A stretch of 64,000 nucleotides of DNA from Candidatus Nomurabacteria bacterium (lineage in GTDB: Bacteria > Patescibacteriota > Minisyncoccia > Phycocordibacterales > UBA918), in contig CP060228.1 in NCBI GenBank assembly GCA_023898565.1, forward strand, positions 25,448 through 89,447, given 5' to 3'. This document shows, in pieces, positions 25,634-53,402 of this stretch (positions within the stretch are counted from its first letter, which is position 1; every line of letters starts with the position of its first letter). Under the pieces are notes generated by a model, which saw only the letters and a list, made by a program, of their open reading frames with translations, did no database searches and was not told the origin of the DNA. Position numbers and translations under genes: made by a program.

Positions 25634-25634
25634 G

Positions 25635-29583: not shown

Positions 29584-29689
29584 CTACTTTAAAACAGGGT
29601 CAAAACAGGGTCAGTCATCTTAAAAGAAGTGGAAAAGACTACAAAAAAGCCAGGTCATAACAGGACCAGGCTTTTGTTATTTTTGTGAC

Positions 29690-30349: not shown

Positions 30350-30351
30350 CT

Positions 30352-31935: not shown

Positions 31936-31968
31936 CAGCCGACTGCTCTACCGCTGAGCTACCGCGGA
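31897..31968 (-). tRNA. tRNA-Asn (anticodon GTT)
   Basis: Minus-sense TCCGCGG TA GCTC AGCGGTA GAGC A GTCGG CTGTTAA CCGAT TGGTC GCAGG TTCGAAT CCTGC CCGCGGA G cloverleaf. CCA is not encoded. Confidence 0.85.
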
Positions 31969-34617: not shown

Positions 34618-35985
34618 TCAAGTAGACTTGCGGAACTTTTCAAATGGACGGAACCAAACCTTGCCTTTTTCCAGATCAGCTCCTTTGCGCGAACCCCACA
34701 CGCTGATGCGCCCGGGCGTAAACAACGCTTGGAAACGAATGAATTGCCAGAAGGTCACCAAAACCACAAAGACCGGCAGTAGCAGCAGTCGCGATGGGTA
34801 TCGCAGTAAGTGCCACAACTGACGAACCGTGAACGTGAGCAACACTCCTGCCACCGAGTACGCTAGAAGCATCCACAGCGGCATTGCCAGACCCGCTTCT
34901 CCCCAGATAGCCAGATATCCCATCCTGACTACCAAAAATACCGAGATAAGGGTTAGCAATAGGTCTGTGTAGTACTGATACATCACAAACCCGAGCCGCC
35001 AAAACCAGCTTTTGCCGGTATACCTGAAGGTCAACCACTGACTGGAGGTTGCCCAGCGCCGGAATATGCGGTTTATCTGCCGGAGTTTTTTCGGAAGCGT
35101 TGTTTCCACGGTCGCCCGCGGATTCATCACTGTCCGATACCCCAACTCTTCCACTCGCAGGGTCATTCGCCGATCGTCACCCGCATGCGCTTGCACGCGA
35201 GCGATTGAAACAAATGGCCACTTGAATGAATATGTCGGCACCTTCCAGTACTCTTCGACCAGCTCGTCCATCCAGTCAGCGATGATACAGGAGCGGACCA
35301 TATACAGGCGCCCCGGCAAACACCCGACCTGACCAAACAGACTACCAGCCGCCATTGATCCACCGATGCGAGCATCCTCAAGCCAGTCAAGAATGCGCAG
35401 CAGCCAATGATTGGGGTTGCGAATACGTTGCGCAGTCGTCACCCCACCCACTCTTTCATCGACAAACGGCCGAAGCAGTTCGCCAATGATATTGTGGTCT
35501 GGCGTGGTCGGCACCGTATCAGAGTCATGGAAGGCAGAAAATTCATACAGCACTCCATGCTTCTTGGCCCACTCCACTGCATTGCGCAGATTTTTTCGCT
35601 TACTGCGCGCATTGGTCATGAAGACGTGTGCACCATATTGCTCGGCGATTTCAGCCAAGGCGCCTCCTTCTTTCGGATACACGTCGGCCGCGTCGACAAT
35701 ACATATGATGGCGTACTTGTCTGCCCATTTTTCAAGCGACGCCCGCAAGGCTGCGAGCGCCTCGTGTAAGACTTCAGGATCCTCCAGGTATATTGGTTCG
35801 AAGAGTGTCACGCCAGTAGCTCGAGTGAGCGGATGCTGCATGAACAGCTTTCCGCGTCGAATCTGGTGATGAAAGTACACACCAAGTAGCTGCCGCGGCA
35901 ACATAATCATCGTTGCAATGAAAAATAAGACTACGAACAGCGTTACTTCGTGACGAATATAGAGGTCGATGTATGTTTGACCCAC
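34618..35985 (-). CDS. Membrane-embedded family-2 glycosyltransferase of the processive synthase type (cellulose/chitin/PNAG-synthase-like)
   Basis: Ordered motifs IVDAAD, HDSDTV (DxD), LEDARIGG (TED-like), FRRW (QxxRW-like). N- and C-terminal TM helices. Confidence 0.6.
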   Translation of the reverse strand: MGQTYIDLYIRHEVTLFVVLFFIATMIMLPRQLLGVYFHHQIRRGKLFMQHPLTRATGVTLFEPIYLEDPEVLHEALAALRASLEKWADKYAIICIVDAADVYPKEGGALAEIAEQYGAHVFMTNARSKRKNLRNAVEWAKKHGVLYEFSAFHDSDTVPTTPDHNIIGELLRPFVDERVGGVTTAQRIRNPNHWLLRILDWLEDARIGGSMAAGSLFGQVGCLPGRLYMVRSCIIADWMDELVEEYWKVPTYSFKWPFVSIARVQAHAGDDRRMTLRVEELGYRTVMNPRATVETTLPKKLRQINRIFRRWATSSQWLTFRYTGKSWFWRLGFVMYQYYTDLLLTLISVFLVVRMGYLAIWGEAGLAMPLWMLLAYSVAGVLLTFTVRQLWHLLRYPSRLLLLPVFVVLVTFWQFIRFQALFTPGRISVWGSRKGADLEKGKVWFRPFEKFRKST

Positions 35986-35988
35986 CTT

Positions 35989-37452
35989 TCACCTCCTGTA
36001 GCCCTTGGTCCAGTCACCACCAAATGTGACGCCAACACGAATGCCGGCTCGCGTTTCACTGCGTCCGTCGAAGCGACTCGGCACCGGCACTGTATAGATT
36101 CGGTGCTCGAGATACACTTCAGCAAACTTTCTACCCCACTGCACTCCTGGTTGTAGCTCAGCATACAGACCGTAGCTCGCCGTGAGCGAAATTTGGTTAT
36201 TCCACCACTTTTCGTCATTTGGTGATTCCACGAAACCAATCTGTACACCTGGCCCATGCTTGAATGATCCAGCCGTCGGAAAAAGAATACGCTGGTTTAC
36301 GTACCCACGAAGCACAAAATCATCTTCGCCAAACGGCTGACCCGACACGGGGTTGATGGCTTGATTTGGCACCTCCCCCGCAAAGGACTTACTCAATGTC
36401 ACGAAGACACTCCACGGCGCGTCAAAACTTGTGAGAACGACACCTTCCTTGAGAATATTGTCGACACGATCACGTTGCGGCCAGTACAGCCTCATCGTGC
36501 CCGCGAACGACGCACGATCTTCTGGAGCAATATCCCAGTCAATCGCCACATCATTTGAAACAGTGCCTGGTTTCCGTTTTCCGAAGAAAAAGGTCACCGT
36601 GTCTACCTGGTCAAACTCTGGCGCCTCGAGATCGAGGAACATTTGTTCAAACCATGGCAACTTCGGCGCGCACAATCCTGAGGTGGATGTCTCAGCAACG
36701 TTGATAGGCCGTTTTGTAAATGCGGCCGCCCGATCGTATGCCGGAGCAAATCCTGCAATGAACGGCTGCTCGTACTCCGAGACAGAATCATTACTACCAG
36801 ATTCGGGACGATACTTTGGCGCCGTTCCACAGCGGTTGTAGCTGGAGATTGAGTACTGATCGACAAATTTATCGAGCGCCGACATGTAACGTCCTGCTTC
36901 TCCCAATACCTGCCCTTTACCATCAGCACGATTGAAGTTCACCTCAAAGAGCACACCGCTGTGAGCGTGATCAAAGAGACTGTGAATGTGACGCAATGCT
37001 GCAATTGCCTCTTCGGGCGTGTTGCCTTTTGCGTACATTCCCCACGGATGCCAAGAGGCATCTACCTCATGCAGTGGTCGAAGTACAATCTGCTTGTCCG
37101 CGCGACTGATAGCCGCCGCCAGATTGTTAAGATCAGGATCAAACCTCCCTTGCGCAATCCGACGAAGCAATCCCTCGCCCTGTTTATCGTCGATGATAAG
37201 CACCAAGATGAGATCATATCCTGCATCGAGATACTTTGCTTTTACCCACGACAGCGGTGCTCTCCGATTAACATCTGAGAGCAAGTTGTAGTAGACCGTG
37301 GCACACTTGATACCCAGTTCTTCCATGCGCTTGATATGCTCAGTGGAAGTCCATGCACTATCTTTTGCCAAACACGGCCGCGGCACACTCGCCTCCGCAA
37401 AAAGCGGAAACAAAAGCAGCGCAGCAAAGAGTGCTACCAGTAGCTTTTTCAT
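35989..37452 (-). CDS. Secreted protein with a signal peptide, an N-terminal glycoside-hydrolase-like domain and a C-terminal beta-rich (barrel-like) domain
   Basis: MKKLLVALFAALLLFPLFAEA signal peptide. HPWGMY...FEVNFN segment. Alternating hydrophobic beta pattern at the C-terminus. Confidence 0.45.
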   Translation of the reverse strand: MKKLLVALFAALLLFPLFAEASVPRPCLAKDSAWTSTEHIKRMEELGIKCATVYYNLLSDVNRRAPLSWVKAKYLDAGYDLILVLIIDDKQGEGLLRRIAQGRFDPDLNNLAAAISRADKQIVLRPLHEVDASWHPWGMYAKGNTPEEAIAALRHIHSLFDHAHSGVLFEVNFNRADGKGQVLGEAGRYMSALDKFVDQYSISSYNRCGTAPKYRPESGSNDSVSEYEQPFIAGFAPAYDRAAAFTKRPINVAETSTSGLCAPKLPWFEQMFLDLEAPEFDQVDTVTFFFGKRKPGTVSNDVAIDWDIAPEDRASFAGTMRLYWPQRDRVDNILKEGVVLTSFDAPWSVFVTLSKSFAGEVPNQAINPVSGQPFGEDDFVLRGYVNQRILFPTAGSFKHGPGVQIGFVESPNDEKWWNNQISLTASYGLYAELQPGVQWGRKFAEVYLEHRIYTVPVPSRFDGRSETRAGIRVGVTFGGDWTKGYRR

Positions 37453-37555
37453 GACATTCCTCCATGAAGACAGTCATATAAGTTGTAAAGAACAAACAAA
37501 CAGCTCATTACAAGCTATTTTTACTAGATTACAATACAACTAATTATCGACTTAG

Positions 37556-40500
37556 TCAATTATCTGCTGAAGCTTCGACTTCGGCGGTCTCTACTGGAGG
37601 TTCTGGCTCTACAGTGGCAGATGGGACCGTCTCTTCCATTTGTTCATACGTATCAGCCTTAGCATCAAAAGAATCTTCCTCCCCAAGCATTTCGACAGCA
37701 CCCGCGCCAACTTCTTGCGCCGTCTCCTCGGCTACCGATACCGAACTTGATGCTGATTCAAACACATCATCCAACACTCTTTCAACACTCGTAGTAGCAG
37801 TCACACTCTCTTCCTCAGCATGCTGAGTATCAGTATTAGAAGAAGCACCTATCGACGCTGAATCAGCTTCACTGTCTGAATCATTCGAAGCGTTAATTGC
37901 AGCTTCCAACGACGACACACGCACTTCAAGTTCAGCAATCTTCTGCTGATTGCCAGTCACGGTCTGCCATATTTCTTTCACTGCCTCCACCACAACGGCG
38001 AGTAAGTTGGCAGTATTGAGTGACCAATAGTCACCTCCTTTACGTACCACTTCAGGCACCACTTCATCTACCTCTTGTGCAATAAATCCGATTTCTTCTT
38101 GATCACCAAATCGTTCGTGATCTTTCCACTCATAGCGTACGCCACGAAGCTGAAGTAGTTTCTCTAAAGCTCCATCGAGGCTCTCAATATTTTGCTTTAA
38201 TCGACGATCAGACGGATTGCGAATAATATTACCGTTTGCATCAGTAGCCAGCGTAGTTGCACCACCGAGCAACACGGAAGATTGCACTGTGCCAATCACA
38301 TCGAGTGCCTGGTCAGGAGAAGTCGTTCCAATTCCCACATAACCATTGGTATCGATGGTGAGTCGCGAAGTGTTATTGGTCTGGAAACGAAGTTGATGAT
38401 TTGAAAAGGTACCAAAAAATCCTTGGTAGTCCTCTGCGCGCATATCGAAAATAACATTGTTGGTAGTATCACGGAACCGTGCACCAGCTCCTGACGGCGC
38501 CACAATGTTAAGCAGTCGGCTATCAGTGCTACTGCCGATACTGATCCGCCCATCGTAACGTAGGCCGCCAACCGTACTTGACGCAATCCACTTGTCATTA
38601 AAGAGAGGGGCGATACTTTCTGTAACACCGTCGTTGCCAACCTTGATAATGGAATCTTCTTCGATAATGAAGTGATCGTTACCACCATCATCGCGATACG
38701 CTTCATTTACTCCCCATAGTTGCCCATCTACTTTTACGTATGAAGCATTTGTCACGCGCACACCTGTCAGCGGTGCAAGCGGCGGGTTGCCACTATCATC
38801 CACACCAATAATCTGCGAGAGGCCATTAATAAAGACGGGCGCCACCTTCTCTGATGTCGTACCAATAATTGCCACACCAGCATATGGAGTCTCGGTGCCG
38901 CCACTGAGATTGGCGCCGTCACGACGGGTCAAAAGACCATTAAAGGTTACAGTAGTAGTACCAGTAAGCGAGATGCGTACTCCATGACGGTCGTTGCGGT
39001 CGGTTGAAAAGTCAGTAAACATGAGTCCCCCATTGGCAGATGAGCCATCAATGTACAAGCCAGTCAGACCATTAAACACTGCACGAGAGTTGTTGATCTT
39101 TGTTTCACCCATTGATGAAAGATAGATACCGCGTAGCGCATTACCGACAGAAAGCAAGTCTTCAATGTATGAGTCATTGAGTGCAGTAGCACGAAAACCA
39201 TGCCCATCAGCACTGTAGATAGAAAGTCCGCGAATCGTAAATCCGCGTGGATTACCGCTACCGGCACCCACCGCTGATTCAAAACCATTACCGGTCACTT
39301 GAGAAATATCGACATCAGTCAGTTTCCAATCACGCACCAAGCCTTCAAAGTAAACACCATCCACGTCCGTACTGGCCGACCCACCATCGAGACTCAGATA
39401 CTCTAAGCGCCCACCGTTGTTATTGTTGACTTCGCCGGAAATTGCTTTATCGCGCACATGAATCATGGCCACTCCTGAGAAGCTGCCGAAATCTGCACGA
39501 ATTGAGCTGCGCGGGGTACTTGAGTATGACCAACGCGGCGAATATGCACCGCGGAGCGTCACTGGCCGATCAAGTATGATTGGACTTGAAATACGATATT
39601 GCCCCATCGGAAAAAACACGGTGCCACCGTCGCCACAGGCGGCGATTGCGGCAGCAATCGCCGCGTCATTGATAGTGGAATTATCTCCGACAGCGCCATA
39701 TGCCTCCACGTTACACACCTCACCACCAAGATCAACAATGCGTGCAGTCGTGGTACCTGCCAAAATAGTACCAGCTACGGTCAAAGTAGCTGACGGAGTG
39801 GTTGTGCCAATCCCAACGCTACCAGTTGACCGAAATACATCAGTGCCATTGCCTTGCCAAGTGCTTGCAGTAGAGCTAGAGAGGGCTTGCCCATTCCAAT
39901 ATAAATCGCCGTTTACGTTGTACAATCGATTAGCCACGCTTGTTGGTGCAGTCGCTCCTAAATAAAGCGCACCTGCCACAGCCAGTACGTCAGACGGGCT
40001 AGAGGTGCCAACTCCGAGCCAGCCAGTTGTATACGTTGTTCCCCCTAAAATTGCATCAGTGAGCTGTGGACTTGAAAAATCTCCGTCAGACAAAACCGAA
40101 TCAAATCGATTACCAACAGTATCGTAGATTTTATCTACTGATTTAATAACATAATCTCGATCAGCACCTCCGGCAGAGCCTTTCACAGATAACGGAACAG
40201 CTGCTTGGTGCGGCAAAGAGTTAATATACATCAACACCTGTGTGATTCTCTCATTGAGACGCGCTTCTGTAACACCAGCGTACGACACTACCAGCTGCTG
40301 GCTCTCGAGAGTTTCATTCACCACGGGATACGACGATGTTGCTGCGGGTAATTCATCTGAAACTGGGCTAGTGACTACCGGCGGACGCACTACTACATCA
40401 AGCACTTCTGCATCACTAGTTACCACCTCAACTCGAACAGTAGTCTGGCAAAAACCAAGTGGACGCACTACCCACCCGAAAGCCGTACAAAAAAGACTGT

Positions 40501-40588
40501 CAGTTGATTCATCAGCATCAGCAAAAACTGGCGACACCAGTCCCACAAACACAACAACCAACGCAAGAAGCGAGTTAACAACCTTCAT
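37556..40588 (-). CDS. Large secreted right-handed beta-helix (pectate-lyase/tailspike-like) protein with a C-terminal intramolecular chaperone (peptidase S74 / endosialidase-chaperone) domain and an acidic tail
   Basis: Signal peptide. GDGGTVFFPMGQYRISSPIIL pectate_lyase_3-like. SDRRLKQNIESLDGALEKLLQLRGVRYEWKD...IGFIAQEVDEVVPEVV chaperone-of-endosialidase signature. Confidence 0.7.
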   Translation of the reverse strand: MKVVNSLLALVVVFVGLVSPVFADADESTDSLFCTAFGWVVRPLGFCQTTVRVEVVTSDAEVLDVVVRPPVVTSPVSDELPAATSSYPVVNETLESQQLVVSYAGVTEARLNERITQVLMYINSLPHQAAVPLSVKGSAGGADRDYVIKSVDKIYDTVGNRFDSVLSDGDFSSPQLTDAILGGTTYTTGWLGVGTSSPSDVLAVAGALYLGATAPTSVANRLYNVNGDLYWNGQALSSSTASTWQGNGTDVFRSTGSVGIGTTTPSATLTVAGTILAGTTTARIVDLGGEVCNVEAYGAVGDNSTINDAAIAAAIAACGDGGTVFFPMGQYRISSPIILDRPVTLRGAYSPRWSYSSTPRSSIRADFGSFSGVAMIHVRDKAISGEVNNNNGGRLEYLSLDGGSASTDVDGVYFEGLVRDWKLTDVDISQVTGNGFESAVGAGSGNPRGFTIRGLSIYSADGHGFRATALNDSYIEDLLSVGNALRGIYLSSMGETKINNSRAVFNGLTGLYIDGSSANGGLMFTDFSTDRNDRHGVRISLTGTTTVTFNGLLTRRDGANLSGGTETPYAGVAIIGTTSEKVAPVFINGLSQIIGVDDSGNPPLAPLTGVRVTNASYVKVDGQLWGVNEAYRDDGGNDHFIIEEDSIIKVGNDGVTESIAPLFNDKWIASSTVGGLRYDGRISIGSSTDSRLLNIVAPSGAGARFRDTTNNVIFDMRAEDYQGFFGTFSNHQLRFQTNNTSRLTIDTNGYVGIGTTSPDQALDVIGTVQSSVLLGGATTLATDANGNIIRNPSDRRLKQNIESLDGALEKLLQLRGVRYEWKDHERFGDQEEIGFIAQEVDEVVPEVVRKGGDYWSLNTANLLAVVVEAVKEIWQTVTGNQQKIAELEVRVSSLEAAINASNDSDSEADSASIGASSNTDTQHAEEESVTATTSVERVLDDVFESASSSVSVAEETAQEVGAGAVEMLGEEDSFDAKADTYEQMEETVPSATVEPEPPVETAEVEASADN

Positions 40589-40641: not shown

Positions 40642-42162
40642 CTAGGCCACACCAGGGAAAAAATCACGAACAATTCGGCTTTTTGCCACACCCATACCAC
40701 GCAAAAGCTTTGTGTAAGCATCTACCATACCTGGAGGACCAGAGAGATACCACGTGCGTTCAAGATAATCAGGCGTACGACGCTTTACCATTTCCTCCGT
40801 TAGATACCCAGATTCGTATGGCTGAGAGACCTCTTCTTTCGCCACCACAGGGATAAGCTCGAGCTGTACCGTACGCATCACACGTCCAAACACCTGTGAA
40901 TACGCCAGTTCATTCATCATATTTACGCAATAGTACAGCGCCACATCACGGGGTTGATCAGCGTCTGCCAAGTATTGTAAATGACTACGAAATGGGGTCA
41001 CGCCAATACCACCAGCGACAAACGCTAATTTTTCCGTTGAATCTTTCGGTAATAAAAAATCTCCTGCTAATTGACTGGCAATGATTTTTTCACCAACGTC
41101 CAGCTTGAGCAGCTCACGTTTATACGAACTGCCGTTTTCCGTTATTTTGAAAGCCATGCGCACTTTGCTTTCTGTCGGAGCAGCTGCAATTGTAAAGTAA
41201 CGGCGAATACCCTTACTGTCTGATTTTTCATGGGGAAACATCCACTCTAGATACTGACCGGCTTTAAACGTAAAACCAGCTGGTTTCTTGAATACAAATT
41301 CATATGTGTTGGCGGCGATACGTTCTTTTGATTCAAACTCAAGATAGAGCTTACGACGCAACCTGGCTGGCAGCATAAAAATGTTGCCGATAATGAGCGC
41401 CAACTCTGGCGAAAAACTAACCAATGAGCTGTTTGAAAGAAAACCAACAAGACCTCCGTAGAGCGTCTGTGGCCCCTTTGTCGCCGGCATCGTAAACGGC
41501 TCAGTAAGCATGTAAAAGGCCAGGAAAAGCGTCGGCCATGACAAGAAAAAAGTACGTAGTGCATCTGGAATCAGCAAACCATAGCTGTACCCCTCAGCCA
41601 CATAAATGACTACACTCACTAACACAAACGCTATTACCGGCACCCACTTACGCACCTTCATCACCACCAAAACACCAGTAATTATGAGCGGAACAAACAG
41701 CGCCGGATTAGCTACCCACCAACTAAACGTGTACACGCCTGTCACACTAAGTGCTGCAGCGCCAACGGCCGCTGGATTCATAAAGTGTTGCCGCCGGTAT
41801 ACAAAAATGAACTTTGACAGAATCGCAATCGTCACTGCTGCCACCAGCGGCCAATTTGAAAGAACATCTTCCTCAGGGATGGTAAGGAAGAAAAGTATAA
41901 AGGCTGTAATCACCGCAGATTCATGATTGACGGGAATGTTGGTGACAAGAGCAATAATCCAGTTAAGTGACAGTGCCACCAGCAATGCCAGCAATAATGC
42001 AAACAGTTGACCGAGTCCACTGTACGCTAAAAAGCCACTGAACCCAGCTACAATGGAACAAAACGCCAACGCAACCAATGAACCGAGCACCAAGCGGTAC
42101 ATACCAATTCCATCAACGAAGTGCTGTAGTGAGCGATATGGCTTTGTAATAATGTGCATCAT
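40642..42162 (-). CDS. Polytopic membrane domain fused to a ferredoxin-NADP-reductase-like FAD/NAD(P)-binding oxidoreductase domain
   Basis: About 270 aa of TM helices, then FTFKAGQYLEW...RRYFTIAAAP (FAD binding), GGIGVTPFRS, YLSGPPGMVDA (NAD binding). Confidence 0.6.
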   Translation of the reverse strand: MMHIITKPYRSLQHFVDGIGMYRLVLGSLVALAFCSIVAGFSGFLAYSGLGQLFALLLALLVALSLNWIIALVTNIPVNHESAVITAFILFFLTIPEEDVLSNWPLVAAVTIAILSKFIFVYRRQHFMNPAAVGAAALSVTGVYTFSWWVANPALFVPLIITGVLVVMKVRKWVPVIAFVLVSVVIYVAEGYSYGLLIPDALRTFFLSWPTLFLAFYMLTEPFTMPATKGPQTLYGGLVGFLSNSSLVSFSPELALIIGNIFMLPARLRRKLYLEFESKERIAANTYEFVFKKPAGFTFKAGQYLEWMFPHEKSDSKGIRRYFTIAAAPTESKVRMAFKITENGSSYKRELLKLDVGEKIIASQLAGDFLLPKDSTEKLAFVAGGIGVTPFRSHLQYLADADQPRDVALYYCVNMMNELAYSQVFGRVMRTVQLELIPVVAKEEVSQPYESGYLTEEMVKRRTPDYLERTWYLSGPPGMVDAYTKLLRGMGVAKSRIVRDFFPGVA

Positions 42163-42236
42163 GCAGTGTAGTACTTAACGGTGATAATAGTTTCAGTATA
42201 CTACTACACCGTTTTACTGATTTAATTTCATTTACA

Positions 42237-42884
42237 ATGCCGTACATAATTGCCGTATTAGCCCTAGCAGTTGTTGGTGTAGGTTTTGCTCTTTCACACA
42301 ATCAGACTGACATAGCTGTCACTCAAAACACGGAAGCGACGGTAGCTGCTACCGAAGAAACTATTCCAAACCTCGTCTCAATTGATGATGAGTTAACTGA
42401 AGCACCAGAAACACCGATTGAAACCGAGGTTGTTATCGAAACAGAAAATACTGCCACCGTAGTAGCCAAGACTGAAATAACTTCTACACAAACGACACCC
42501 CAAACCAACACCATAGAACCAAACACTGCGACCACACCGAGTACGCCGGCCCCTGCAGCACCCACCCCAAGTACACCAGCTATTACGTATACATATGCAA
42601 ACGGTACCTACAATGCTACCCGCAGTTATCGCACACCAGATGGAAACTACAGCATGGATGTGAGCCTGACAGTCAGCAACGATACAGTTACCGCTGTAGA
42701 CATTTCCTTTAGTGGCAAAGCAGCTCGCGATAGCTACACCAAGCGCTTTTTAAAGAGTTATGAAGGTGGCGTTGTTGGGAAAGACCTTGAAAACGTTGAC
42801 CTCGCTCGAGTTGGTGGCGCTTCACTAACAACAAACGCCTTTAACGTAGCAATCGACAGTATCAGGGCACAAGCTATCCTCTAG
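42237..42884 (+). CDS. Extracytoplasmic FMN-binding-domain protein (N-terminal anchor/signal, Thr/Pro-rich linker)
   Basis: C-terminal VDLARVGGASLTTNAFNVAI resembles the FMN_bind D..SGAT(I/L)(S/T) flavinylation motif. Confidence 0.5.
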   Translation: MPYIIAVLALAVVGVGFALSHNQTDIAVTQNTEATVAATEETIPNLVSIDDELTEAPETPIETEVVIETENTATVVAKTEITSTQTTPQTNTIEPNTATTPSTPAPAAPTPSTPAITYTYANGTYNATRSYRTPDGNYSMDVSLTVSNDTVTAVDISFSGKAARDSYTKRFLKSYEGGVVGKDLENVDLARVGGASLTTNAFNVAIDSIRAQAIL

Positions 42885-42959
42885 GTACAGATTTGGTTTT
42901 TCTTACGAATGTATTACTATACTAGTGTTGTTAGTTTAATTTTTAAACCATTACCACGT

Positions 42960-43394
42960 ATGTCGTACATTATTGGTATTATCGTCATAGCTGTTGTCGC
43001 GATTGGATTCACCCTTACGAGGAACGGTGATATACCACCGAGTCAAACAGAGGTTGCTACCTCCGAAACGGTCACCAGAGAAACGTCTGGCGATGCTGTT
43101 GCCACGATTACAGACGGCACACACAGCACATCAGTTACCTATTTCACACCAGCACGCAACGAGTATTTGCTGGACGTAACACTCATCACCGAAAACGGGA
43201 TAATCACTGACGCGAACGTGGCATATAGCCAAGGAGCAGAAAAGGACCCGAATGCACAACGCTTTGAAGCGGCATACAAAGAGGTTGTTATTGGCCAATC
43301 AATTTCTGACCTTGAAGTATCACGCGTTGGCGGAGCCTCACTCACTAGCGCAGCCTTCAACGAAGCGCTTGCCAAGATTCGATCTGAAGCATAA
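42960..43394 (+). CDS. Extracytoplasmic FMN-binding-domain protein (paralogue)
   Basis: LEVSRVGGASLTSAAFNEAL. N-terminal MSYIIGIIVIAVVAIGF anchor parallels the upstream gene. Confidence 0.5.
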   Translation: MSYIIGIIVIAVVAIGFTLTRNGDIPPSQTEVATSETVTRETSGDAVATITDGTHSTSVTYFTPARNEYLLDVTLITENGIITDANVAYSQGAEKDPNAQRFEAAYKEVVIGQSISDLEVSRVGGASLTSAAFNEALAKIRSEA

Positions 43395-43403
43395 AGTTAG
43401 CAC

Positions 43404-44273
43404 ATGACTCATGAATTCGAGGCGCTCGGCACCAAGTGGTGGATTACCATCTTTGGCGACGCTTCGAAGGAAACGCTCGAGGCGGCCTTTGGCCGCCTCG
43501 AGCGTTTTACACGTGAATACGAAATGCGCTACTCACGATTTCGTACTGACTCACTCATCAGCAAACTTAATACCCAACGGAAATTTGAAGCGCCAGATGA
43601 GGCATTCCGCACCCTTCTTGAGTTCGGCAAAGGCCTTTACCTACGCACAAACACCAACTTCAATCTTTTGACCGGAAACATTCTTGAAGCCCGCGGCTAT
43701 AACGCTGACTACACATTCACACCATCCAACCCTGAACGAGAAACAGCCGGAAACCCTATAACCGACTTACAAATTACATTAGAAAAAATCACTCTCGCTC
43801 ATGGGAAGGTTGACATTGGCGGATACGGCAAAGGATACTTGATTGATGAACTGGCAAGAATTCTTCAAGAAGAATTCTTGCTGCCCTACTTTTTAATCAA
43901 TGGCGGCGGTGACATGTTCGTGAGTAGTAACTGTAATAAGCCAGTTGAAATCTATCTCGAACACCCGACTGCTCCAAAAAAGTATATCCACACCACCCTA
44001 CTACACAACCAAGGCTTCGCAGCATCTAGTCCCTTTAAACGTATCTGGAAATCAGCCGACCAAACCTTCACACACATCATCACCAATCACACCGCACCAA
44101 AAGTTGCCTCGTTTGTGAAAGCTTCTTCAGCACGAGATGCCGACGCCTTTGCCACCACAGCTCTTCTCTTGCATGAAACTGAATTAGTAAAGCTTGCCCA
44201 CGAGGAACACTTCAGTATTGCACGCTTCAATCCAGAAACAAGTCAGCTCTGGCAAACAACAAACTTTACGTAA
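43404..44273 (+). CDS. apbE: ApbE-family FAD:protein FMN transferase
   Basis: DIGGYGKGYLIDE ApbE signature. Size 289 aa. Confidence 0.7.
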   Translation: MTHEFEALGTKWWITIFGDASKETLEAAFGRLERFTREYEMRYSRFRTDSLISKLNTQRKFEAPDEAFRTLLEFGKGLYLRTNTNFNLLTGNILEARGYNADYTFTPSNPERETAGNPITDLQITLEKITLAHGKVDIGGYGKGYLIDELARILQEEFLLPYFLINGGGDMFVSSNCNKPVEIYLEHPTAPKKYIHTTLLHNQGFAASSPFKRIWKSADQTFTHIITNHTAPKVASFVKASSARDADAFATTALLLHETELVKLAHEEHFSIARFNPETSQLWQTTNFT

Positions 44274-44310
44274 AAAAAACTCAGGCTTTCGCCTGAGTTT
44301 TATTGAATGT

Positions 44311-44955
44311 TTATTTCATATCGGGAAGATGAATGGCTGCCCAAACATGATCACCGTCGGGTATCACCTCAGTACTGTGAAGCTGCAGCGACAAATTTTG
44401 CCCAGTACGCGTAACACCGAGCACAAATCGCCGGCCGTGTACAAGCACCGGCTTCATGAAAAAGATTACTTCTCGACCCAGCGGAAGCTTATCTCCATAG
44501 TGCAACACAACCGTGAACACGATGTCGAGAGAACACTCTGAAAGCTGATGCGACTGCAGACCGTTTCGAACCAGCGGAATCGTCGCAACCCCACCACACA
44601 GGTCTACCGTTTCCATTAAATACAACTGGGAGAAACATGCGGTACCATTCACCTCCCCCAGTTCAATGAGTTTAAATACTAAAGGGTCGAGAGGGGTGAC
44701 ACACCCTTCTGCAACCGCTCTCCTGAAAGCTGCCAAGTACTGCGCTGCAGCACTATAGACACCCGTAACTTCAACATCGAATCCGGTCATGTGATCATAT
44801 CTGCCAACCACAGACTCTGCATGTCCGCTCATCGCTCTCGGATCTGCGATGGCGTAGCTGAGACCACGCAGCTGTGCAGGGGTTAGCACCAGTGTTCGAA
44901 GCATTGATTCAAACCCTCGAACAAATTGTGCGACAACATCATCATTTTTCAACAT
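44311..44955 (-). CDS. Hypothetical protein
   Basis: ORF only. Start chosen at MLKNDD. Confidence 0.35.
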   Translation of the reverse strand: MLKNDDVVAQFVRGFESMLRTLVLTPAQLRGLSYAIADPRAMSGHAESVVGRYDHMTGFDVEVTGVYSAAAQYLAAFRRAVAEGCVTPLDPLVFKLIELGEVNGTACFSQLYLMETVDLCGGVATIPLVRNGLQSHQLSECSLDIVFTVVLHYGDKLPLGREVIFFMKPVLVHGRRFVLGVTRTGQNLSLQLHSTEVIPDGDHVWAAIHLPDMK

Positions 44956-45100
44956 GACAATCTCCTTGTGACAAAAGTAGAAAGAACAATTTTTCGGCGA
45001 TTCAATCGCACCAATCGCTACTATGTCATAGATTAGCAATATTGCAAAAGCGGCGCGGACCGAAGGTCCGCGCCGCTGTTTCTTTTGTAAAAATAGTTAC

Positions 45101-45739
45101 CTATTCACCACTTTCCTCTTTCGCCATAATCATCGCTTTTACGCGCATGGTTGATACCACCGCGTCGCGATTGCGTTCATCGAGCTGCATCGTGATGAAC
45201 TTAATCGTGTCATTGAGATTTGGAATACGCACGTTCTCGAGCGCTGACACGCGACGGCGCGTCTTTTCGATTTCCTGCGCTAGGTTTTCCGCTGTCTTCT
45301 CAAGCTCAGCGAGCTTCAGGATATCGACAATCACCGCATCAAATTTCACCATGGCATTGTCGAGATCACCAGTGGTTTCGAGCATGCCGTAGGCAAATGC
45401 AGAGCCGTGCTTCTCGATGGTAAACTCAGGAATCTTCACTGACATCACGCTGTTTACCCTCACGCCAAGATCAATCTTGGCGTTTGGCACCATGAAGGCA
45501 GTGTTGAGCGCAGCTGCAGAAGTCATACCACTCGCCCGAGCGTATGAATCAAACGCTGAGCCAAGACGCGCCTCAACCGACTCACGCTTCGCCTTTGCCT
45601 CATAGATAATCGCCATGAATTTCTTCACGAGACCATCGCGCTTATCTTTGAGTAGCTTATGTCCCTTCTTCGCAGTCTTGAGTTCCTTCTTGAGTGAAAG
45701 GAGCGCAATGCGAGTGGGGTTAACTTTTAATATAGCCAT
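45101..45739 (-). CDS. atpD: V/A-type ATPase subunit D
   Basis: Coiled-coil 212 aa at the last position of the operon. Confidence 0.8.
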   Translation of the reverse strand: MAILKVNPTRIALLSLKKELKTAKKGHKLLKDKRDGLVKKFMAIIYEAKAKRESVEARLGSAFDSYARASGMTSAAALNTAFMVPNAKIDLGVRVNSVMSVKIPEFTIEKHGSAFAYGMLETTGDLDNAMVKFDAVIVDILKLAELEKTAENLAQEIEKTRRRVSALENVRIPNLNDTIKFITMQLDERNRDAVVSTMRVKAMIMAKEESGE

Positions 45740-45752
45740 AATTCAGAAGAAA

Positions 45753-47135
45753 TTATGCAGCTACCGTTGGCATCCATTTATCGATTTCAGCTGGCTTAAC
45801 ACGCTTCAGTGATGTGCGCGGCAGCATAGCAAGCAACTTCCAACCAATATCAAGTGATTCTTCTACCGAACGGTTTTCAAATTCTCCCTGACCAACGAAC
45901 TCTCGTTCGAACGCATCAGCGAAGCGAAGGTGTGCCTTGTCGGTATCGTCGAGTGATGCTTCACCAAGCACCACCGCGAGCTCACGCACTTCACGACCTG
46001 TCGCATATGATGCGAAGAGCTGATCCTTGAGATTCTTGTGATCCTCACGAGTCTTCCCTTCACCTACACCAGCTGACCAGAGTCGAGACAGTGAACCTTG
46101 TACGTCCACCGGTGGAAATACACCCTTGCGGTAAAGTTCACGAGAAATCACGAACTGACCTTCAGTAATGTACCCCGTAAGGTCTGGCACTGGGTGAGTC
46201 TTGTCGTCGTCTGGCATCGTGAGAATTGGAATCTGGGTAATCGTACCCTTCTTGCCTTTTACGCGACCAGCGCGTTCATAAATAGTTGAGAGGTCAGTGT
46301 AGAGATATCCTGGATACCCACGACGTCCCGGCACTTCCTTACGCGCTGAAGACACTTCGCGAAGCGCTTCACAGTAGTTGGTAAGGTCAGTGAGAATTAC
46401 AAGTACGTGCATTCCCTTTTCAAACGCCAAGTACTCAGCGGTAGTGAGGGCCATGCGCGGAGTTGATACACGCTCTACCACTGGGTCAGCCGCTGTGTTG
46501 ATGAAGAGTACAGAACGCTCAAGCGCACCTGCCTCTTCGAATTCACGACGGAAGTATTCTGCTTCTTCAAATGACACACCGAGTGTCGCAAAAACAATCG
46601 CGAAGTCACTACCGTCCTTTACCGATGCTTGACGCGCAATCTGTGCTGCGAGGCGTGAGTGTGGAAGACCAGCACCCGAGAAAATCGGCAGCTTCTGTCC
46701 GCGCACGAGTGTGTTCATTACGTCGATTGAACCAATACCAGTCTGAATGAAGTCGTTTGGGAATTCACGTGAGAATGGATTGATTGGCTCGCCGGCAATG
46801 TCGCGACGTTGTTCTGGCACGAGTTCCGGACCACCATCAGCTACCTGACCAGCACCATTGAACACACGACCAAGCATGTCTTCTGACACACCAAGCTTGA
46901 GCGTTTCGCCACGGAAACGCGCACGCGTACCGTCGGCAGTCATACCACTCGTCGCATCAAACATCTGCACCACTGCCTTGTCCTTAGACACATCAAGCAC
47001 CTTACCAAAGCGCGGCTTTGACTCTCCTGGTACGTTTACCTCAACAAGTTCTTCGTACTTAGCACCTTCAACTCCTTCTACCACCATTAGTGGTCCAGCA
47101 ATTGAAGCAATGTCTGTATATTCTTTTTGACTCAT
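45753..47135 (-). CDS. atpB: V/A-type ATPase subunit B
   Basis: 460-aa non-catalytic nucleotide-binding subunit. [18 protein letters not shown]. Confidence 0.85.
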
Positions 47136-47145
47136 GATACGAAAC

Positions 47146-48945
47146 TTAGTTAGCTGCCAAGGCGCTCACTTCAGCGCGAACGGTATCCTGGAACTTCTGA
47201 TAATCCTCCTTCTTCCACGTAAGCTGATCCTTAAGGGTAGCTACCTGTGCGTATGACGGAATGGCTGTGAAAGCTGCAAATTCAAACTCTGGCTGATTCA
47301 CCACTTCCTGACCAGCGTCGAAGAATGTAATAATTGACTTAAGCATACCGTACTGACGTTCGAGTGGTGTGTAGGCATCATCCTTTGAGAAGGCATCCTG
47401 GAAGAGGAAGTCTTCACGAATCATGCGAGCCACTTCGAGGATAAGTCGGTCTCCGTTTGAAAGTGATTCCATACCTACGAGACGAACAATTTCGAGCAAC
47501 TTTGATTCCTTTTCAAGAAGGGTCATGGCTGTCTTTCGCACATCCACAAAGTCTTCTGCCACTTCTTCCTTCCAGAACTTTTCGAAGTTTGGTGCGTAGA
47601 GTGAGTATGATACGAGCCAGTTGATTGATGGGAAGTGCTTCTTGTACGCCAAGTCTGAGTCGAGTGACCAGAACGTCTTGGTTACACGAAGTGTTGCCTG
47701 TGATACCGGCTCTGAAAGGTCTCCACCTGGAGGCGACACCGCACCAATCACCGTAAGTGACCCAGTACGTCCTTCGCTACCAAGCGTCTTTACGATACCG
47801 GCTCGTTCGTAGAACTCAGCAGTACGTGATGAAAGATACGCAGGATATCCTTCTTCACCTGGCATTTCTTCAAGACGACCAGAAATTTCACGCATCGCTT
47901 CTGCCCAACGTGAGGTTGAGTCTGCCATGAGCGCTACGTTGTAGCCCATGTCACGGTAGTACTCAGCAATGGTGATACCGGTATAGACCGACGCTTCACG
48001 CGCGGCTACTGGCATGTTTGACGTGTTCGCAATGAGAATGGTTCGCTTCATGAGCGGCTCGCCAGTATTTGGGTCGATGAGGTGCGGGAATTCTGAAAGC
48101 ACTTCAGTCATCTCGTTACCACGCTCACCACAACCGATGTACACGATGATTTCCGCGTCACAGTACTTTGCAATACCCTGCTGCGTTACCGTCTTACCAG
48201 CACCAAATGGGCCAGGAATACACCCAGCTCCTCCCTTGGCAATTGGGAAGAAGGTGTCGATGGAACGTCCACCGGTACGAAGTGGCTGCGTTGGGAAGAT
48301 CTTTGATGCCTTTGGGCGAGCCTGACGAATTGGCCAGTGCTGAAGCATTGCAATGCTTGCTATTGTTCCATCAGCGCGAGTGAGTGTAGCTACTTCTTCA
48401 GTCACGGTAAATTCACCGCTCTTGATAGACGCTACTACTCCACCCTCTCCTGGTGGCACCATGACTTTATGCACGATAAGTGAAGTCTCTTGCACTTCAC
48501 CAAGCACATCACCTTCTACAACCGTCGCACCCTCCTTAACTACTGGAGTGAACTTCCACTTCTTACTGGTGTCGATTGCTTCCGCTTCGATACCTCGCTT
48601 AATGAAACAGTTTCCTGCTGCCGCTTCAATCTTGTGGAGCGGTCGCTGCACACCGTCATAAATAGATTCAAGAAGTCCTGGAGCAAGCGCTACTGACATC
48701 GTGCGACCAGTACGGTACACCACGTCACCTGGGCCAACACCCGCTGTTTCTTCATACACCTGAATCGCTGCCACGTCGCCATGGAGCTCGATGATTTCGC
48801 CGAGGAGCTTTTCCTCAGACACCTTTACCACCTCGTAGAGCTTCGCCTCCTTCATACCGTTGGCGCGCACGAGTGGTCCAGTCACACGGAGAATAACACC
48901 AGCCTTGATGTCACCTTGTGTGGTTGTTTCCTGTGATTTCGTCAT
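47146..48945 (-). CDS. atpA: V/A-type ATPase catalytic subunit A
   Basis: GPFGAGKT Walker A. 599 aa with the non-homologous insert typical of A subunits. Confidence 0.9.
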
Positions 48946-48985
48946 GATGATTTTAATAAATACTAATAGTGAATGAATAAATGAT

Positions 48986-49336
48986 TTAAATGATTGCTGA
49001 TCCTACTGCCTGTTCGGCCAATCGACGGAGTCGCTCGATGGCGAAGCCGCTGCTTCCCTCTGGACCTGGTAACAACACTACTGCTGGCAATGCCCCCTCT
49101 ACTACCTTGGCGTATTCGGCTTGATCAACCATAGTGACCAAATCTTCGATAATACACACAATGGCGTACTTCTTTTCTGATACCGGGTCGAGTGTTTGCT
49201 GTCTAATCTGCCGGAGCTGCTCAAGCGCTTCATCTGCAGTATTGGCTGCAAATGGTTCAACTCCCAAAGCTTTGAACCCAGACACCGTGTCGGCTGGGCC
49301 AACAATGGCAATTTTGTATTCGTTAGTTGTTGACAT
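48986..49336 (-). CDS. atpF: V/A-type ATPase subunit F
   Basis: YKIAIVGPADTVSGFKALGVE. Start at MSTTNEYK. Confidence 0.7.
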   Translation of the reverse strand: MSTTNEYKIAIVGPADTVSGFKALGVEPFAANTADEALEQLRQIRQQTLDPVSEKKYAIVCIIEDLVTMVDQAEYAKVVEGALPAVVLLPGPEGSSGFAIERLRRLAEQAVGSAII

Positions 49337-50306
49337 AAGCCATGCGGAGATTAGCGCGGATATCTTCAAGTGCAAGTCCGTTGTTTCGTCCAACCACAAT
49401 TGCACGAACATTGGCCGCAGCCTGACGACACTTTAAGTAATAGAAGACGAGTGAAGCTGATGAGAACATGTCTGTACTCCCCTCCTTAGCGACTCGAAGC
49501 AGATAGTCGGCCGATGCCGCATCAATGCGTGTGAAGTTTCCTTCTTCAGCAAAGTAGGTAAGCGCATCCTTCCAGAAAGCCTCACCACCAAAGCGCGCGA
49601 AGATTGCCTCAACATCGGCCATGGTTTCGATTTGGTGCGCTCCAAACGTACCACCAGATACAAATGCTGGTTCGAGCTCAACCGACTCATTCTTGAGGCG
49701 ACGGAGTCGACTCTTGAGATTATAGAGATCAATCAAGACACCGAGGTACTGCTTCATAAAAGCATCACCCGCATCTACAATCCGTGTACTCGTCTTAAAG
49801 TAGAGCTCGTCAAAAACAGCGTCCACTTTACTTAGTTCACCGGCTTCTACGAGCGCCGCTGCCGCAGCGAAGGCTTCTTGCCATCCTGCCTGCAATGATG
49901 AGAGCGAACGTTCGGCCACATGCTTATGCAGCTGCTCAGGCTCGTAGATACCGCGGCCTGAAAGGAACGGTGTACACTCCTCATACGAGAGCCCGGTCGC
50001 CAAACCTTTAGCAAAAGCACGAAGATTATGAATGTCATACTGCACCCACAACACGCGAAGCATATCGCCGTCAGGCGCAATACTGTGAATGAGCTTTTTT
50101 GCATCAATCAAAGTCTGCTCGATTGCGAGACCAAGGTCTTCGTTTGGTACACGAAGTACGTATGGCGCAAGGTACGTTTCCTTAAGCGCTGACTGCAAGT
50201 CGGCACCAGGCTCAGCCACCAGCAAACGCTCGATGTCTGTCTTTGAAAGGAGAAACTGCGCTAAGGCATTAACTCGACTGACACTGTAAATATAAGCGGT
50301 TTGCAT
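49323..50306 (-). CDS. atpC: V/A-type ATPase subunit C (d)
   Basis: 327-aa helical protein at the expected operon position. Confidence 0.7.
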   Translation of the reverse strand: MQTAYIYSVSRVNALAQFLLSKTDIERLLVAEPGADLQSALKETYLAPYVLRVPNEDLGLAIEQTLIDAKKLIHSIAPDGDMLRVLWVQYDIHNLRAFAKGLATGLSYEECTPFLSGRGIYEPEQLHKHVAERSLSSLQAGWQEAFAAAAALVEAGELSKVDAVFDELYFKTSTRIVDAGDAFMKQYLGVLIDLYNLKSRLRRLKNESVELEPAFVSGGTFGAHQIETMADVEAIFARFGGEAFWKDALTYFAEEGNFTRIDAASADYLLRVAKEGSTDMFSSASLVFYYLKCRQAAANVRAIVVGRNNGLALEDIRANLRMAYVNN

Positions 50307-50314
50307 GATTATAA

Positions 50315-50884
50315 TTACGCCATTACTTTGCGAGTAATTTCCATCTCGACTTCAGCACGAACATCACTCATAAGACGTCCGAGTGTTACGTCGTACACGC
50401 CATCCTTAGCCATCACCACAAGTCCAGCTTGCAGTTTTGCATTTTCTACAATATCGCCAGCAAGTCCGGCCTCTTTAAGAATAGCTTCGGTTTCTGCTAC
50501 GCGAGTAGCCGGCGCCTCAACTGACACTACCTCGACATCTTTACCAACAATCGCTGCAACTTGCTTAGCAAAGAATGCTGTATATGCAGCCGCGTCAAGA
50601 GCGAGAATTTCTGCTGTAACTTCAGCAAAGACCGCATCAACTTGCGTACGCTTTGCTTCCTGCACAGCAATCTTCCCAGCTTGTTTCGCTTTAGCGAGTG
50701 TCACCAACTCAAGATGCGCCTTGCGCTTGGCAAGTTCCGCTTCTTTAGTAGTAGTAAGCGCTGTTACCGCAGCGTCGGTCTCACGCTTGATCGCTTCAAC
50801 CTTCGCTTCGCCAGCAGCTTGAATATCAGCTACTGTCGCAGCCGCTTCTTGTTTGATTTTTTCAACCAGCGTGTTTTCCGACAT
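50315..50884 (-). CDS. atpE: V/A-type ATPase subunit E
   Basis: 189-aa coiled-coil N-terminus plus globular C-terminus. Confidence 0.7.
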   Translation of the reverse strand: MSENTLVEKIKQEAAATVADIQAAGEAKVEAIKRETDAAVTALTTTKEAELAKRKAHLELVTLAKAKQAGKIAVQEAKRTQVDAVFAEVTAEILALDAAAYTAFFAKQVAAIVGKDVEVVSVEAPATRVAETEAILKEAGLAGDIVENAKLQAGLVVMAKDGVYDVTLGRLMSDVRAEVEMEITRKVMA

Positions 50885-50904
50885 AGTGGATTTGTTACGA
50901 ATAA

Positions 50905-51402
<498 letters not shown>

Positions 51403-51440
51403 TTAATTGTTGCTAATAAATAATCATTTATTCATTACGA

Positions 51441-53402
51441 TCAATCATCATTAATCGTAACGTAATCTTCTGATCGAGCGAGAGGAGAGAAATCTTTACC
51501 AGTGCCGGCAATAAATTTACCGAAGAATTCCACAAATTGGAGACGAGCACTATGTACGAAGGCACCAAGTGTATTGATGGCGAGGGTAAACATATGCCCT
51601 ACAAAGAGAATAATGGCTGAAAGGATGAATCCGATATACGGCACATCAATGAGCATGCTCGCGATAAGATTTACCGCAAACGCGAGCGCTGAAGTCGCTA
51701 GTCCAAGCGCAAGGAGACGTGAGTATGAAAGCACGTCTGAGAAATAACCAACGCCAGCGTAGAGACCAGCCGCCGCTGAGATAATTTTCCCGACAATACC
51801 ATTTCCGTTACGGCCGCTTGAGAGCACAATCAGTGCGGCACCGAGGTAGCCAAGTTTTCCAATTACATCAACCGAAACCACATCTACCCAGCCAATTGCC
51901 GTAAGCACATAGAGAATACCGACACCAAAAGTAAAGAGCCACGGCCCCTGATCAAGCACACCATTCATCAACTGACCATTGCGTGCGTCGCTGTAGATCT
52001 TAAGAATCATACCTACCATCACCTGGAACACACCAAGAGAAAGCGCTAAGTAGAACACTGGAAGCGGGTTGCCAATCGGGTCAAATTTTTGCATCGCTTG
52101 CAGAGGTGCGGGAAGCTGATCAACCGCAATTCCAAAGTATCCACCAAAGAGTGCGCCCACAAGCACTGTCGCAAAACCAATATACAAAAGCAGCTTAGCA
52201 AATGAGCGAGTAGCTGCCTTTACCTTACAGAACAGCAAAATAAATGAAGACGCGATTACTAACGCCAGACCGTACCCTACGTCAGTCAGACACAAACCAA
52301 AGTACAGGAAGAAGAATCCTGCGAGGTAGGCGGTTGGATCTAGGTCTTTGTACCCAGGCATACCATAGAGACGAGTCACTGCTTCAAATGGCTGTACAAA
52401 CTTGGAGTTAACCACATCAACTGGCGGCTCTTCACCTTCCTCAAGCGGTGCTTCTGCAATAACTGCGGCAAGCCCCTTCTCTTTGAAGGAAGCTTCAATC
52501 GTCGGACGACTTTCAGCCTTAAGCCAACCATCAAATACCACTGAGTATTTAGTCGCTACCGCCGAAGCGGTCACTGCAAAACGATCTCGCTGCCATGACA
52601 AAATTTCAGAAGCGATCTGCAGCTTCTTGTAGTGCGTAATCGCAAAGTGTTCTGCTTGGTCGTGCAAAAGTGCTAGTTCGCTCTTAACGGCCGCAAGCTG
52701 CTCAGCCACTGCGACCACTTCAATATCAGCTGTTTCTGTGCCGATTGGCAATGAGACCACTTCACCATCAACTGATTCAATCAGCTTCTTAGCTTCATTA
52801 ATACTTACTTCGTCATTAGCTACCGTAAGCGCAGCGGTCTGCACTGACACTACCGTAACAACTGCAGACAAGCCAGACTCACTAAGCGCAGTAAGGAGCT
52901 CAGCTTCAATAGTATGCGCGTCGGTTGCCTGATGTCCTTTTATTAAAAAAGTCTGTGTTCGCTTAGTACTGAGCTCACTAAGCTTGATTGGAAGCGCGCT
53001 CCATTCCACCAACAAATCATGTTTAGCCTGCAACTCTTCAGACTTTTCAGTCACTTCAGCAAATTCCACCTGTAGCTTTTCTAGGTCATCTACCACAGAA
53101 GAAACTACATCAGTATCTTTAAGCTGCTTTGCTACATCAGCCTCGGTAAGCGAGGTTAGAGATCCTTCACGAAGCGTCTTCCAAAGACCGACTTCAGGCG
53201 CATATGGCGCAAGCCACTGAATAGCGTGCTGTACACGAGGCAAGAGTGCTGCATGCGGGAATGATAAATCAGCTGCAGCGGCATTCTCCAGCTTAGTTTC
53301 ACGAAATTCCAGTGCACCAGCACGCTGCACTACATCAAGTGCGGCATCCACGTCATGTTCGTGGACCATCAAACGCACCTTTTGCATTGGAATAACTGCC
53401 AT
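51441..53402 (-). CDS. atpI: V/A-type ATPase subunit I (a)
   Basis: 653 aa, with an N-terminal soluble coiled-coil and a C-terminal 8-TM domain. Confidence 0.8.
   Translation of the reverse strand: MAVIPMQKVRLMVHEHDVDAALDVVQRAGALEFRETKLENAAAADLSFPHAALLPRVQHAIQWLAPYAPEVGLWKTLREGSLTSLTEADVAKQLKDTDVVSSVVDDLEKLQVEFAEVTEKSEELQAKHDLLVEWSALPIKLSELSTKRTQTFLIKGHQATDAHTIEAELLTALSESGLSAVVTVVSVQTAALTVANDEVSINEAKKLIESVDGEVVSLPIGTETADIEVVAVAEQLAAVKSELALLHDQAEHFAITHYKKLQIASEILSWQRDRFAVTASAVATKYSVVFDGWLKAESRPTIEASFKEKGLAAVIAEAPLEEGEEPPVDVVNSKFVQPFEAVTRLYGMPGYKDLDPTAYLAGFFFLYFGLCLTDVGYGLALVIASSFILLFCKVKAATRSFAKLLLYIGFATVLVGALFGGYFGIAVDQLPAPLQAMQKFDPIGNPLPVFYLALSLGVFQVMVGMILKIYSDARNGQLMNGVLDQGPWLFTFGVGILYVLTAIGWVDVVSVDVIGKLGYLGAALIVLSSGRNGNGIVGKIISAAAGLYAGVGYFSDVLSYSRLLALGLATSALAFAVNLIASMLIDVPYIGFILSAIILFVGHMFTLAINTLGAFVHSARLQFVEFFGKFIAGTGKDFSPLARSEDYVTINDD

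Follow-up and report, generated by a model that had tools for sequence, protein, structure and literature searches.

Organization of the locus

Within a 64,000-nucleotide (nt) stretch of the Candidatus Nomurabacteria contig CP060228.1 (positions 25,448 to 89,447; assembly GCA_023898565.1), in the following called the window, positions 40642-44273 carry a cluster of four genes that probably encodes a minimal flavin-based electron transfer complex derived from the NQR and RNF membrane systems. A first-pass annotation made from the DNA letters had described the cluster as a membrane-anchored FNR fusion, two proteins binding flavin mononucleotide (FMN) and an ApbE flavin transferase, and all four open reading frames (ORFs) were recovered precisely in the places it had assigned, together with every motif it quoted.

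The fusion gene lies on the minus strand (40642-42162, 506 aa) and runs divergently from the three plus-strand genes. Its residues 1-270 (41353..42162) form an NqrB/RnfD-like membrane domain, while residues 271-506 with the stop codon (40642..41352) make up a cytoplasmic FNR-type module binding flavin adenine dinucleotide (FAD) and NAD(P)H. The plus-strand trio encodes a long-tether NqrC/RnfG-like subunit (42237..42884, 215 aa), a short-tether NqrC/RnfG-like subunit (42909..43394, 161 aa) and an ApbE-family FAD:protein FMN transferase (43404..44273, 289 aa), separated by spacers of 24 nt and then 9 nt. Between the fusion gene and the operon of the small proteins and ApbE lies a gap of 74 bp (42163..42236), presumed to be a shared promoter region, in which we found a single weak sigma-70-like match on the plus strand (42175-42202) that does not imply a functional meaning. 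A hairpin with an 11-bp stem between A and T runs (44276..44301), recognized as a consensus match only, begins 3 nt past the ApbE stop codon and is likely to be a bidirectional terminator ending the three-gene operon.

Two of the start sites may lie further downstream than the ORF limits. In the identical public protein P0001 (505 aa), the start corresponds to the second Met in the fusion ORF, and orthologues of the 161-aa ORF start at its Met18 (MSYII/MPFII; nt 42960), so that the gene probably encodes 144 aa. Database searches returned 1666 relatives of the fusion and 1369 of the small proteins; with more than one thousand each, these ORFs are not due to chance.

The fusion protein

The C-terminal half of the fusion matches NAD_binding_1 (PF00175, 45.8 bits), carries the motifs RRYFTIAAAP (320-329), GGIGVTPFRS (384-393) and YLSGPPGMVDA (472-482), and comes without a ferredoxin domain. 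The membrane half, comprising about ten helices, matches NQR2_RnfD_RnfE (PF03116) with 38.5 bits against a cut-off of 27.7. It is remote in sequence, as its profile gave zero matches to PDB sequences, and its fold resembles RnfD/NqrB. By hhalign, fusion residues 3-266 align with residues 4-334 of E. coli RsxD (E 8e-5), with a single large gap that spans RsxD 150-229. This segment is the periplasmic loop bearing the flavinylated Thr (GIDGISQATPLD) and contains the GISQAT sequence; the LTDPVT/LTEPFT motif is retained in the fusion. We conclude that the membrane domain has an NqrB/RnfD fold from which the covalent-flavin loop has disappeared.

The first-pass annotation had remarked on the scarcity of histidines in the transmembrane (TM) part and on the missing signs of a bis-heme fold, and both remarks were borne out: the membrane domain holds His only at positions 3, 14, 80 and 126, and a Pfam search of the fusion gave no match to Ferric_reduct (PF01794) at E <= 0.1. 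This puzzle is resolved by the assignment above, because the domain is an NqrB/RnfD fold and not a bis-heme ferric reductase. A flavinylation site within the fusion itself was considered and rejected, since inspection by eye of the residues invariant in 34 homologues revealed nothing resembling [ST]-G-A-[ST].

Two tethered FMN_bind-like subunits

ApbE covalently attaches FMN to Thr or Ser residues of extracytoplasmic proteins, among them NqrC/RnfG and PplA of Listeria. The two small proteins of the cluster share the layout of a tethered target, in which a hydrophobic helix at the extreme N-terminus is followed by a linker rich in Thr, Pro, Glu and Ala and by a domain of ~100 residues. In the 215-aa subunit the TM helix begins at residue 1, the linker covers ~93 residues (21-113) and the FMN_bind-fold domain occupies residues 114-215, whereas the linker of the 161-aa subunit measures only ~30-40 residues. 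The two domains are 35 % identical and carry the motifs VGGASLTT (192-199) and VGGASLTS (140-147), respectively.

Compared with Pfam-passing FMN_bind partners of NQR/RNF-like systems from other phyla, the family profile spans the whole domain (hhalign 95.6 %, E 1e-8), and an FMN_bind fold was found for the domain as well. The Ser of the G-G-A-S motif aligns with the Thr of the G-A-T motif in E. coli RsxG and in the Pfam-passing partners, is invariant in 59 homologues, where relatives show A/S-G-A-S in place of G-G-A-S, and begins the last helix (83-100) of the structure model. For these three reasons we predict, from alignment and model, that Ser196 of the 215-aa protein (codon 42822-42824) and Ser144 in the numbering of the 161-aa ORF (codon 43338-43340) would receive the FMN, rather than the Thr that trails them.

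Most related loci hold one FMN_bind gene, and the window has a long-tether and a short-tether copy. The 215-aa protein falls into a group with single-copy proteins of ~200 aa at loci L001 and L003 (domain identity 57 % and 56 %), and the 161-aa protein resembles a single-copy 164-aa orthologue at L005. The tandem of a long and a short form recurs in L089 (195 and 146 aa) and L090 (191 and 151 aa), and both tether types apparently occur on several further contigs. Two other assignments were discarded. A match of the 215-aa protein to YidC_periplas (23.1 bits, cut-off 24) covers the low-complexity linker and the edge of the domain, and FMN_bind is preferred; a 187-aa gene downstream of the L001 fusion reaches 20 % identity and lacks the motif, and was not taken as a family member.

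The flavin transferase

Judged by its sequence, the 289-aa protein is clearly a member of the ApbE family, in agreement with the first-pass annotation. It matches PF02424 with 105 bits over residues 8-268, its profile matches solved ApbE structures in the PDB with E values down to 6e-9, and by hhalign residues 7-277 align with residues 41-329 of E. coli ApbE/Ftp at 94.7 %. The segment DIGGYGKGYLIDE at residues 137-149 opens with DIGGYGKGY (137-145), which aligns with its E. coli counterpart, as do THII (223-226) and ADAFAT (246-251). We take the corresponding patterns, D-x-G-G-x-G-K-G-Y, the His before I-I/V-D, and A-D-A-x-x-T, to be the FAD-binding and catalytic motifs of ApbE/Ftp.

At the N-terminus of the protein we detected no signal peptide, lipobox, TM helix or hydrophobic segment. 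It starts where the E. coli enzyme has reached about residue 35-41, near the beginning of its mature core, and a longer N-terminus is excluded because an in-frame TAG sits just upstream. Readthrough from the 161-aa ORF, which would yield a fusion able to export ApbE, was considered and dismissed: the two genes share a frame in the window, but a TAA followed by an in-frame TAG separates them, and coordinate arithmetic places them in different frames in L001 and L005.

Synteny and distribution

In a scan of species-representative genomes we found 454 relatives of the fusion and kept 80 loci, for which ORFs were called and iterated profile searches were run. Among the 1666 database relatives of the fusion, the closest, at 50-69 % identity, come from Parcubacteria, Nomurabacteria and Pacebacteria, and the 80 loci cover many classes of Patescibacteria as well as Ktedonobacteria, Anaerolineae, Actinomycetota, Mesorhizobium, Kaistia and Spirochaetota. 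The proposed synteny was upheld: at 70 of the 80 loci the genes for the fusion, ApbE and FMN_bind protein are clustered within 2.5 kb, and these loci belong to Patescibacteria, Chloroflexota, Actinomycetota, Alphaproteobacteria and Spirochaetota. Orthologous systems are also found in hosts that can be cultured, among them Dictyobacter, Ktedonobacter, Mesorhizobium, Agreia, Herbiconiux and Arthrobacter. At 65 of the 80 the order is FMN_bind, ApbE, fusion on a single strand, with the fusion inverted in the clade of the window. Clustering of all neighbors across the 80 loci revealed no fourth conserved gene.

The family falls into two subtypes, one with an ApbE of ~247 aa and a Pfam-passing FMN_bind domain carrying S-G-A-T, and one, to which the window belongs, with an ApbE of ~290 aa and a divergent, Pfam-failing domain carrying G/S/A-G-A/S-S. 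Fusion, ApbE and FMN_bind genes are also borne by several metagenome-assembled genomes labelled "uncultured Gammaproteobacteria" (L010-L013, L047, L055, L086); those of L010, L012 and L013 belong to the divergent subtype that the window shares with Saccharibacteria, and the taxonomy given for these bins may not be reliable.

Relation to known systems

Méheust et al. (2021, eLife, PMC8238504) applied the term "NQR/RNF-like system" to flavinylation gene clusters that contain a fusion of PF03116 and PF00175, and counted 127 of them, chiefly in Actinobacteria and the candidate phyla radiation. As the window combines PF03116 and PF00175 in one protein near PF02424, it falls under the operational definition of that study. 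Huang et al. (2024, PMC10979944) modelled the complex of Ktedonobacter, in which the flavinylation Thr of NqrB/RnfD is not conserved and the flavin of the NqrC-like subunit approaches the vacated NqrB/RnfD site. The cluster in the window fits this class feature by feature at the sequence level, with the domain fusion, an NqrC/RnfG-like FMN_bind subunit and ApbE adjoining, and the flavinylated Thr of NqrB/RnfD missing. It departs from the published examples in having two NqrC-like paralogues where the literature describes two apparent subunits of which one is NqrC-like, in a fusion gene that is divergent instead of following the common one-strand order, and in an FMN_bind domain of the divergent G-G-A-S subtype below the Pfam threshold. 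The locus is hence a further example of a published class that adds no new concept, and the dual tethers and the divergent FMN_bind subtype are twists at the level of the lineage. The first-pass annotation had missed the NqrB/RnfD-like nature of the membrane domain, the published class and the lack of an export signal on ApbE.

With Na+-NQR (NqrA-F) and RNF (RnfA-E,G), the cluster shares homologues of NqrB/RnfD, NqrC/RnfG and the FAD domain of NqrF, besides an ApbE-dependent maturation. It differs from both in lacking an Fe-S domain, in the deletion of the covalent-FMN loop, and in the absence of NqrA/D/E and RnfA/B/C/E, no genes for which were found among the window ORFs around the cluster. 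Electron flow is presumed to be one-way, in contrast to the semicircular path of the parent complexes, and no quinone or ferredoxin site is evident.

The extracellular electron transfer system of Listeria monocytogenes (Ndh2, EetA/B, PplA, FmnB) likewise connects cytoplasmic NADH in a single-membrane cell to surface-tethered proteins flavinylated by an ApbE homologue, FmnB. The system of the window has neither the Ndh2/quinone step nor EetA/B, uses two single-domain, N-terminally anchored proteins instead of one two-domain lipoprotein, and employs an ApbE without the lipoprotein signal that FmnB possesses. MsrQ-like and NOX-type fusions of a ferric reductase with FNR also join a membrane domain to a C-terminal FNR module near apbE and an FMN_bind gene, but the membrane domain of the window is not bis-heme, having four His, no Ferric_reduct match and an RnfD/NqrB fold. 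A signal-less ApbE is shared with Klebsiella pneumoniae, where the cytoplasmic enzyme serves a soluble NADH:fumarate reductase; according to PMC12052999, its FMN_bind target is cytoplasmic and soluble, whereas the targets here are membrane-anchored or export-signalled.

Proposed mode of electron transfer

Taken together, we favor a reading in which the four genes encode a minimal NQR/RNF-derived complex, made of three part homologues and their maturation enzyme, that passes electrons from NAD(P)H to flavoproteins tethered outside the membrane, and we give it a probability of roughly 0.65. The analysis itself shows which domains are present and how they fold, that the flavinylation loop of RnfD is gone, that the Ser motif is conserved and that the three genes closely co-occur, and since the component assignments held, the earlier view of a flavin electron transfer module is supported overall. 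That the module leads from NAD(P)H to the outside is something we infer here, as does the literature on the class.

In such a complex, NAD(P)H would reduce the FAD of the cytoplasmic FNR module, from which electrons would cross the membrane via one or more flavin sites of the fused NqrB/RnfD-like domain, whose own covalent-FMN loop is lost. On the outer face they would be taken up by the covalent FMN on Ser196 and Ser144 of the tethered subunits, to which ApbE would have attached it with FAD as the donor. The lengths of the linkers suggest that the short tether may serve as a docked acceptor and the long one, with its ~93-residue linker, as a far-reaching shuttle to an external acceptor.

Bacteria of the candidate phyla radiation are believed to live by fermentation, without electron transport chains. 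In such a cell without a respiratory chain, the likely purpose of the system is to regenerate NAD(P)+ or to reduce iron or other oxidants outside the cell, and a self-contained conduit of a few hundred residues would let the cell shed reducing equivalents or reduce external substrates. As the smallest known NQR/RNF derivative, it would also offer a tractable model for the passage of electrons through the NqrB/RnfD fold.

Several points weigh against this reading. The Pfam profile FMN_bind (PF04205) scores the 161-aa protein at 17.9 bits against a threshold of 22, does not match the 215-aa protein, and matches only 19 of 59 homologues at E <= 0.05, all of them below threshold; three positions before the predicted Ser stands a Gly, where the [S/T]-G-A-[S/T] motif has Ser or Thr. 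The claim of the first-pass annotation that both small proteins carry FMN_bind-like domains thus fails at the Pfam threshold, and we retain the assignment on the profile-profile comparison and the fold. Across the 80 loci no gene for an acceptor or terminal reductase is conserved nearby, and in the literature searched we found no experimental study of the NQR/RNF-like class, which is predicted and modelled. We also infer which cofactors are bound, which way the electrons run, how the proteins sit in the membrane, what accepts the electrons and that the paralogues act as a relay. The anchors in the clade of the window consist of a helix from residue 1-2 with no positive n-region and with a mean of one Lys or Arg just after it, so that charge-bias rules do not fix an N-in/C-out orientation.

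A further adverse point concerns the place of flavinylation, as a signal-like N-terminus was absent from all 73 fusion-clustered ApbEs examined (loci L001-L087). The test located the core motif within the longest possible ORF, and the E. coli control, scoring 2.68, was clearly separated. In 47 of the 73 the first core strand lies within 18 residues of the start of the longest ORF; the others have either a polar N-terminal extension (12-residue hydropathy <= 1.5) or a variant core strand that the pattern missed, and the latter were judged by eye from the N-terminal 40 residues. In the review PMC12052999, an ApbE without a signal is mentioned only together with cytoplasmic targets, and the point is not discussed in PMC8238504 or PMC10979944. 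A signal-less ApbE complicates the simple picture of extracytoplasmic flavinylation. Tat export of a pre-flavinylated domain was rejected as a general answer, as an RR motif occurs in 4 of ~10 actinobacterial and spirochaete orthologues and in no candidate-phyla-radiation orthologue of the FMN subunit examined.

Throughout the family, a cytoplasmic flavin transferase might serve an exported or anchored target, with FMN attached before or during export or in a topology not yet considered, and the short and long tethers of the window might then form a two-step relay; we put this forward tentatively, as a possibility that we rate at less than even odds. If true, a cytoplasmic ApbE would allow extracytosolic flavoproteins to obtain their covalent FMN without any external FAD, an arrangement well suited to the minimal cells of the candidate phyla radiation, and the relay of short and long tethers in the clade of the window would reach tens of nanometres from the membrane. 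The lack of a signal on ApbE across the family bears on the place and timing of flavinylation and merits specialist attention.

The same observations could be read in favor of a cytoplasmic geometry, in which the FMN_bind domains face the inside, are flavinylated there by the signal-less ApbE, and relay single electrons from the FAD of the FNR module to the RnfD-like domain, much as the FMN domain of diflavin reductases does, the RnfD-like domain then reducing a membrane or external acceptor. Besides the uniform absence of signal peptides, the cytoplasmic target of the known signal-less ApbE and the anchors that often carry Lys or Arg after the helix, this geometry would account for the fact that some relay is needed, because the ferredoxin domain, which acts as the one-electron relay of NqrF, is missing from the FNR module. 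It is, however, at odds with the orthologues, as the actinobacterial FMN subunits bear clear lipoprotein boxes (such as LAGC, VTGC and AACG) and those of several other phyla show a standard positive-inside signal anchor with a K/R-rich n-region ahead of the TM segment. The lost loop is moreover periplasmic in RnfD/NqrB, in the published multimer model the FMN domain docks at this place, and linkers that are acidic and rich in Thr and Pro typify exported tethers, so we consider a cytoplasmic orientation unlikely and keep to the outward-facing conduit.

Two further explanations were weighed. NqrB and RnfD belong to ion-translocating complexes, and in the window, as in L001 and L005 (57-68 % identical), the cluster adjoins a complete V/A-type ATPase operon. 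This would fit a machine that has retained the cation path of NQR/RNF and links electron transfer from NAD(P)H to the movement of Na+ or H+ in concert with the ATPase. This adjacency is, however, missing in L003/L004, L089 and nearly all distant loci, ATPase-like matches in L008 and L024 are weak (E 1e-20 to 1e-32), and the shared position may be inherited gene order within one clade; as NqrD/E and RnfA/E are missing too, an ion-motive role appears quite improbable to us. Equally doubtful is an assimilatory reductase of ferric iron or another metal, in which the tethered FMN would reduce extracellular Fe(III) for uptake rather than serve energy or redox balance: iron reduction has been linked to the analogous MsrQ-like and PepSY-like FNR fusions, but genes for an iron transporter or a siderophore are absent from the cluster and its immediate flanks, and none is conserved across the 80 loci. 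Export of electrons from NAD(P)H to tethered flavoproteins therefore remains the reading that we prefer.

Genomic surroundings

The V/A-type ATPase operon directly beside the cluster occupies 45101-53402 on the minus strand and is complete, with D, B, A, AC39/C, I and small subunits. Between ApbE and its D gene lies a family-less ORF (44311-45039, minus strand; 242 aa from a TTG start), which is called at 214 aa in the identical public contigs L091 and L092 and is flanked by strong hairpins, the putative terminator described above (44276-44301) and a second one at 45049-45077; in L001 and L005 this ORF is missing from the position.

On the other side of the cluster, ~9 kb between the fusion and the UDG/Fpg genes are inserted relative to L001 and L005. 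The three largest ORFs of this insert span 34618-40588 on the minus strand and encode a 1010-aa pectate-lyase-type beta-helix surface protein that bears a Peptidase_S74 intramolecular-chaperone domain, as tail-spike or fiber-like surface proteins typically do, a family-less protein of 487 aa, and a glycosyltransferase of 455 aa, whose family follows the public gene calls in L091/L092.

A block of low GC content (~16000-31968; 39-44 % versus about 48-50 % elsewhere) looks like an integrated mobile or defense island. It encodes a 1034-aa Eco57I/MmeI-type methylase-endonuclease, an overlapping 1149-aa PLD-nuclease/SNF2-helicase protein, an FtsK-like translocase, and a 527-aa large serine recombinase whose gene overlaps tRNA-Asn (31896-31968) at its 3' end. 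Further upstream, a gene on the plus strand (5098-6597) encodes a 499-aa protein that joins an N-terminal HTH_3 domain to a full EPSP-synthase-fold domain of the AroA/MurA type, an unusual pairing.

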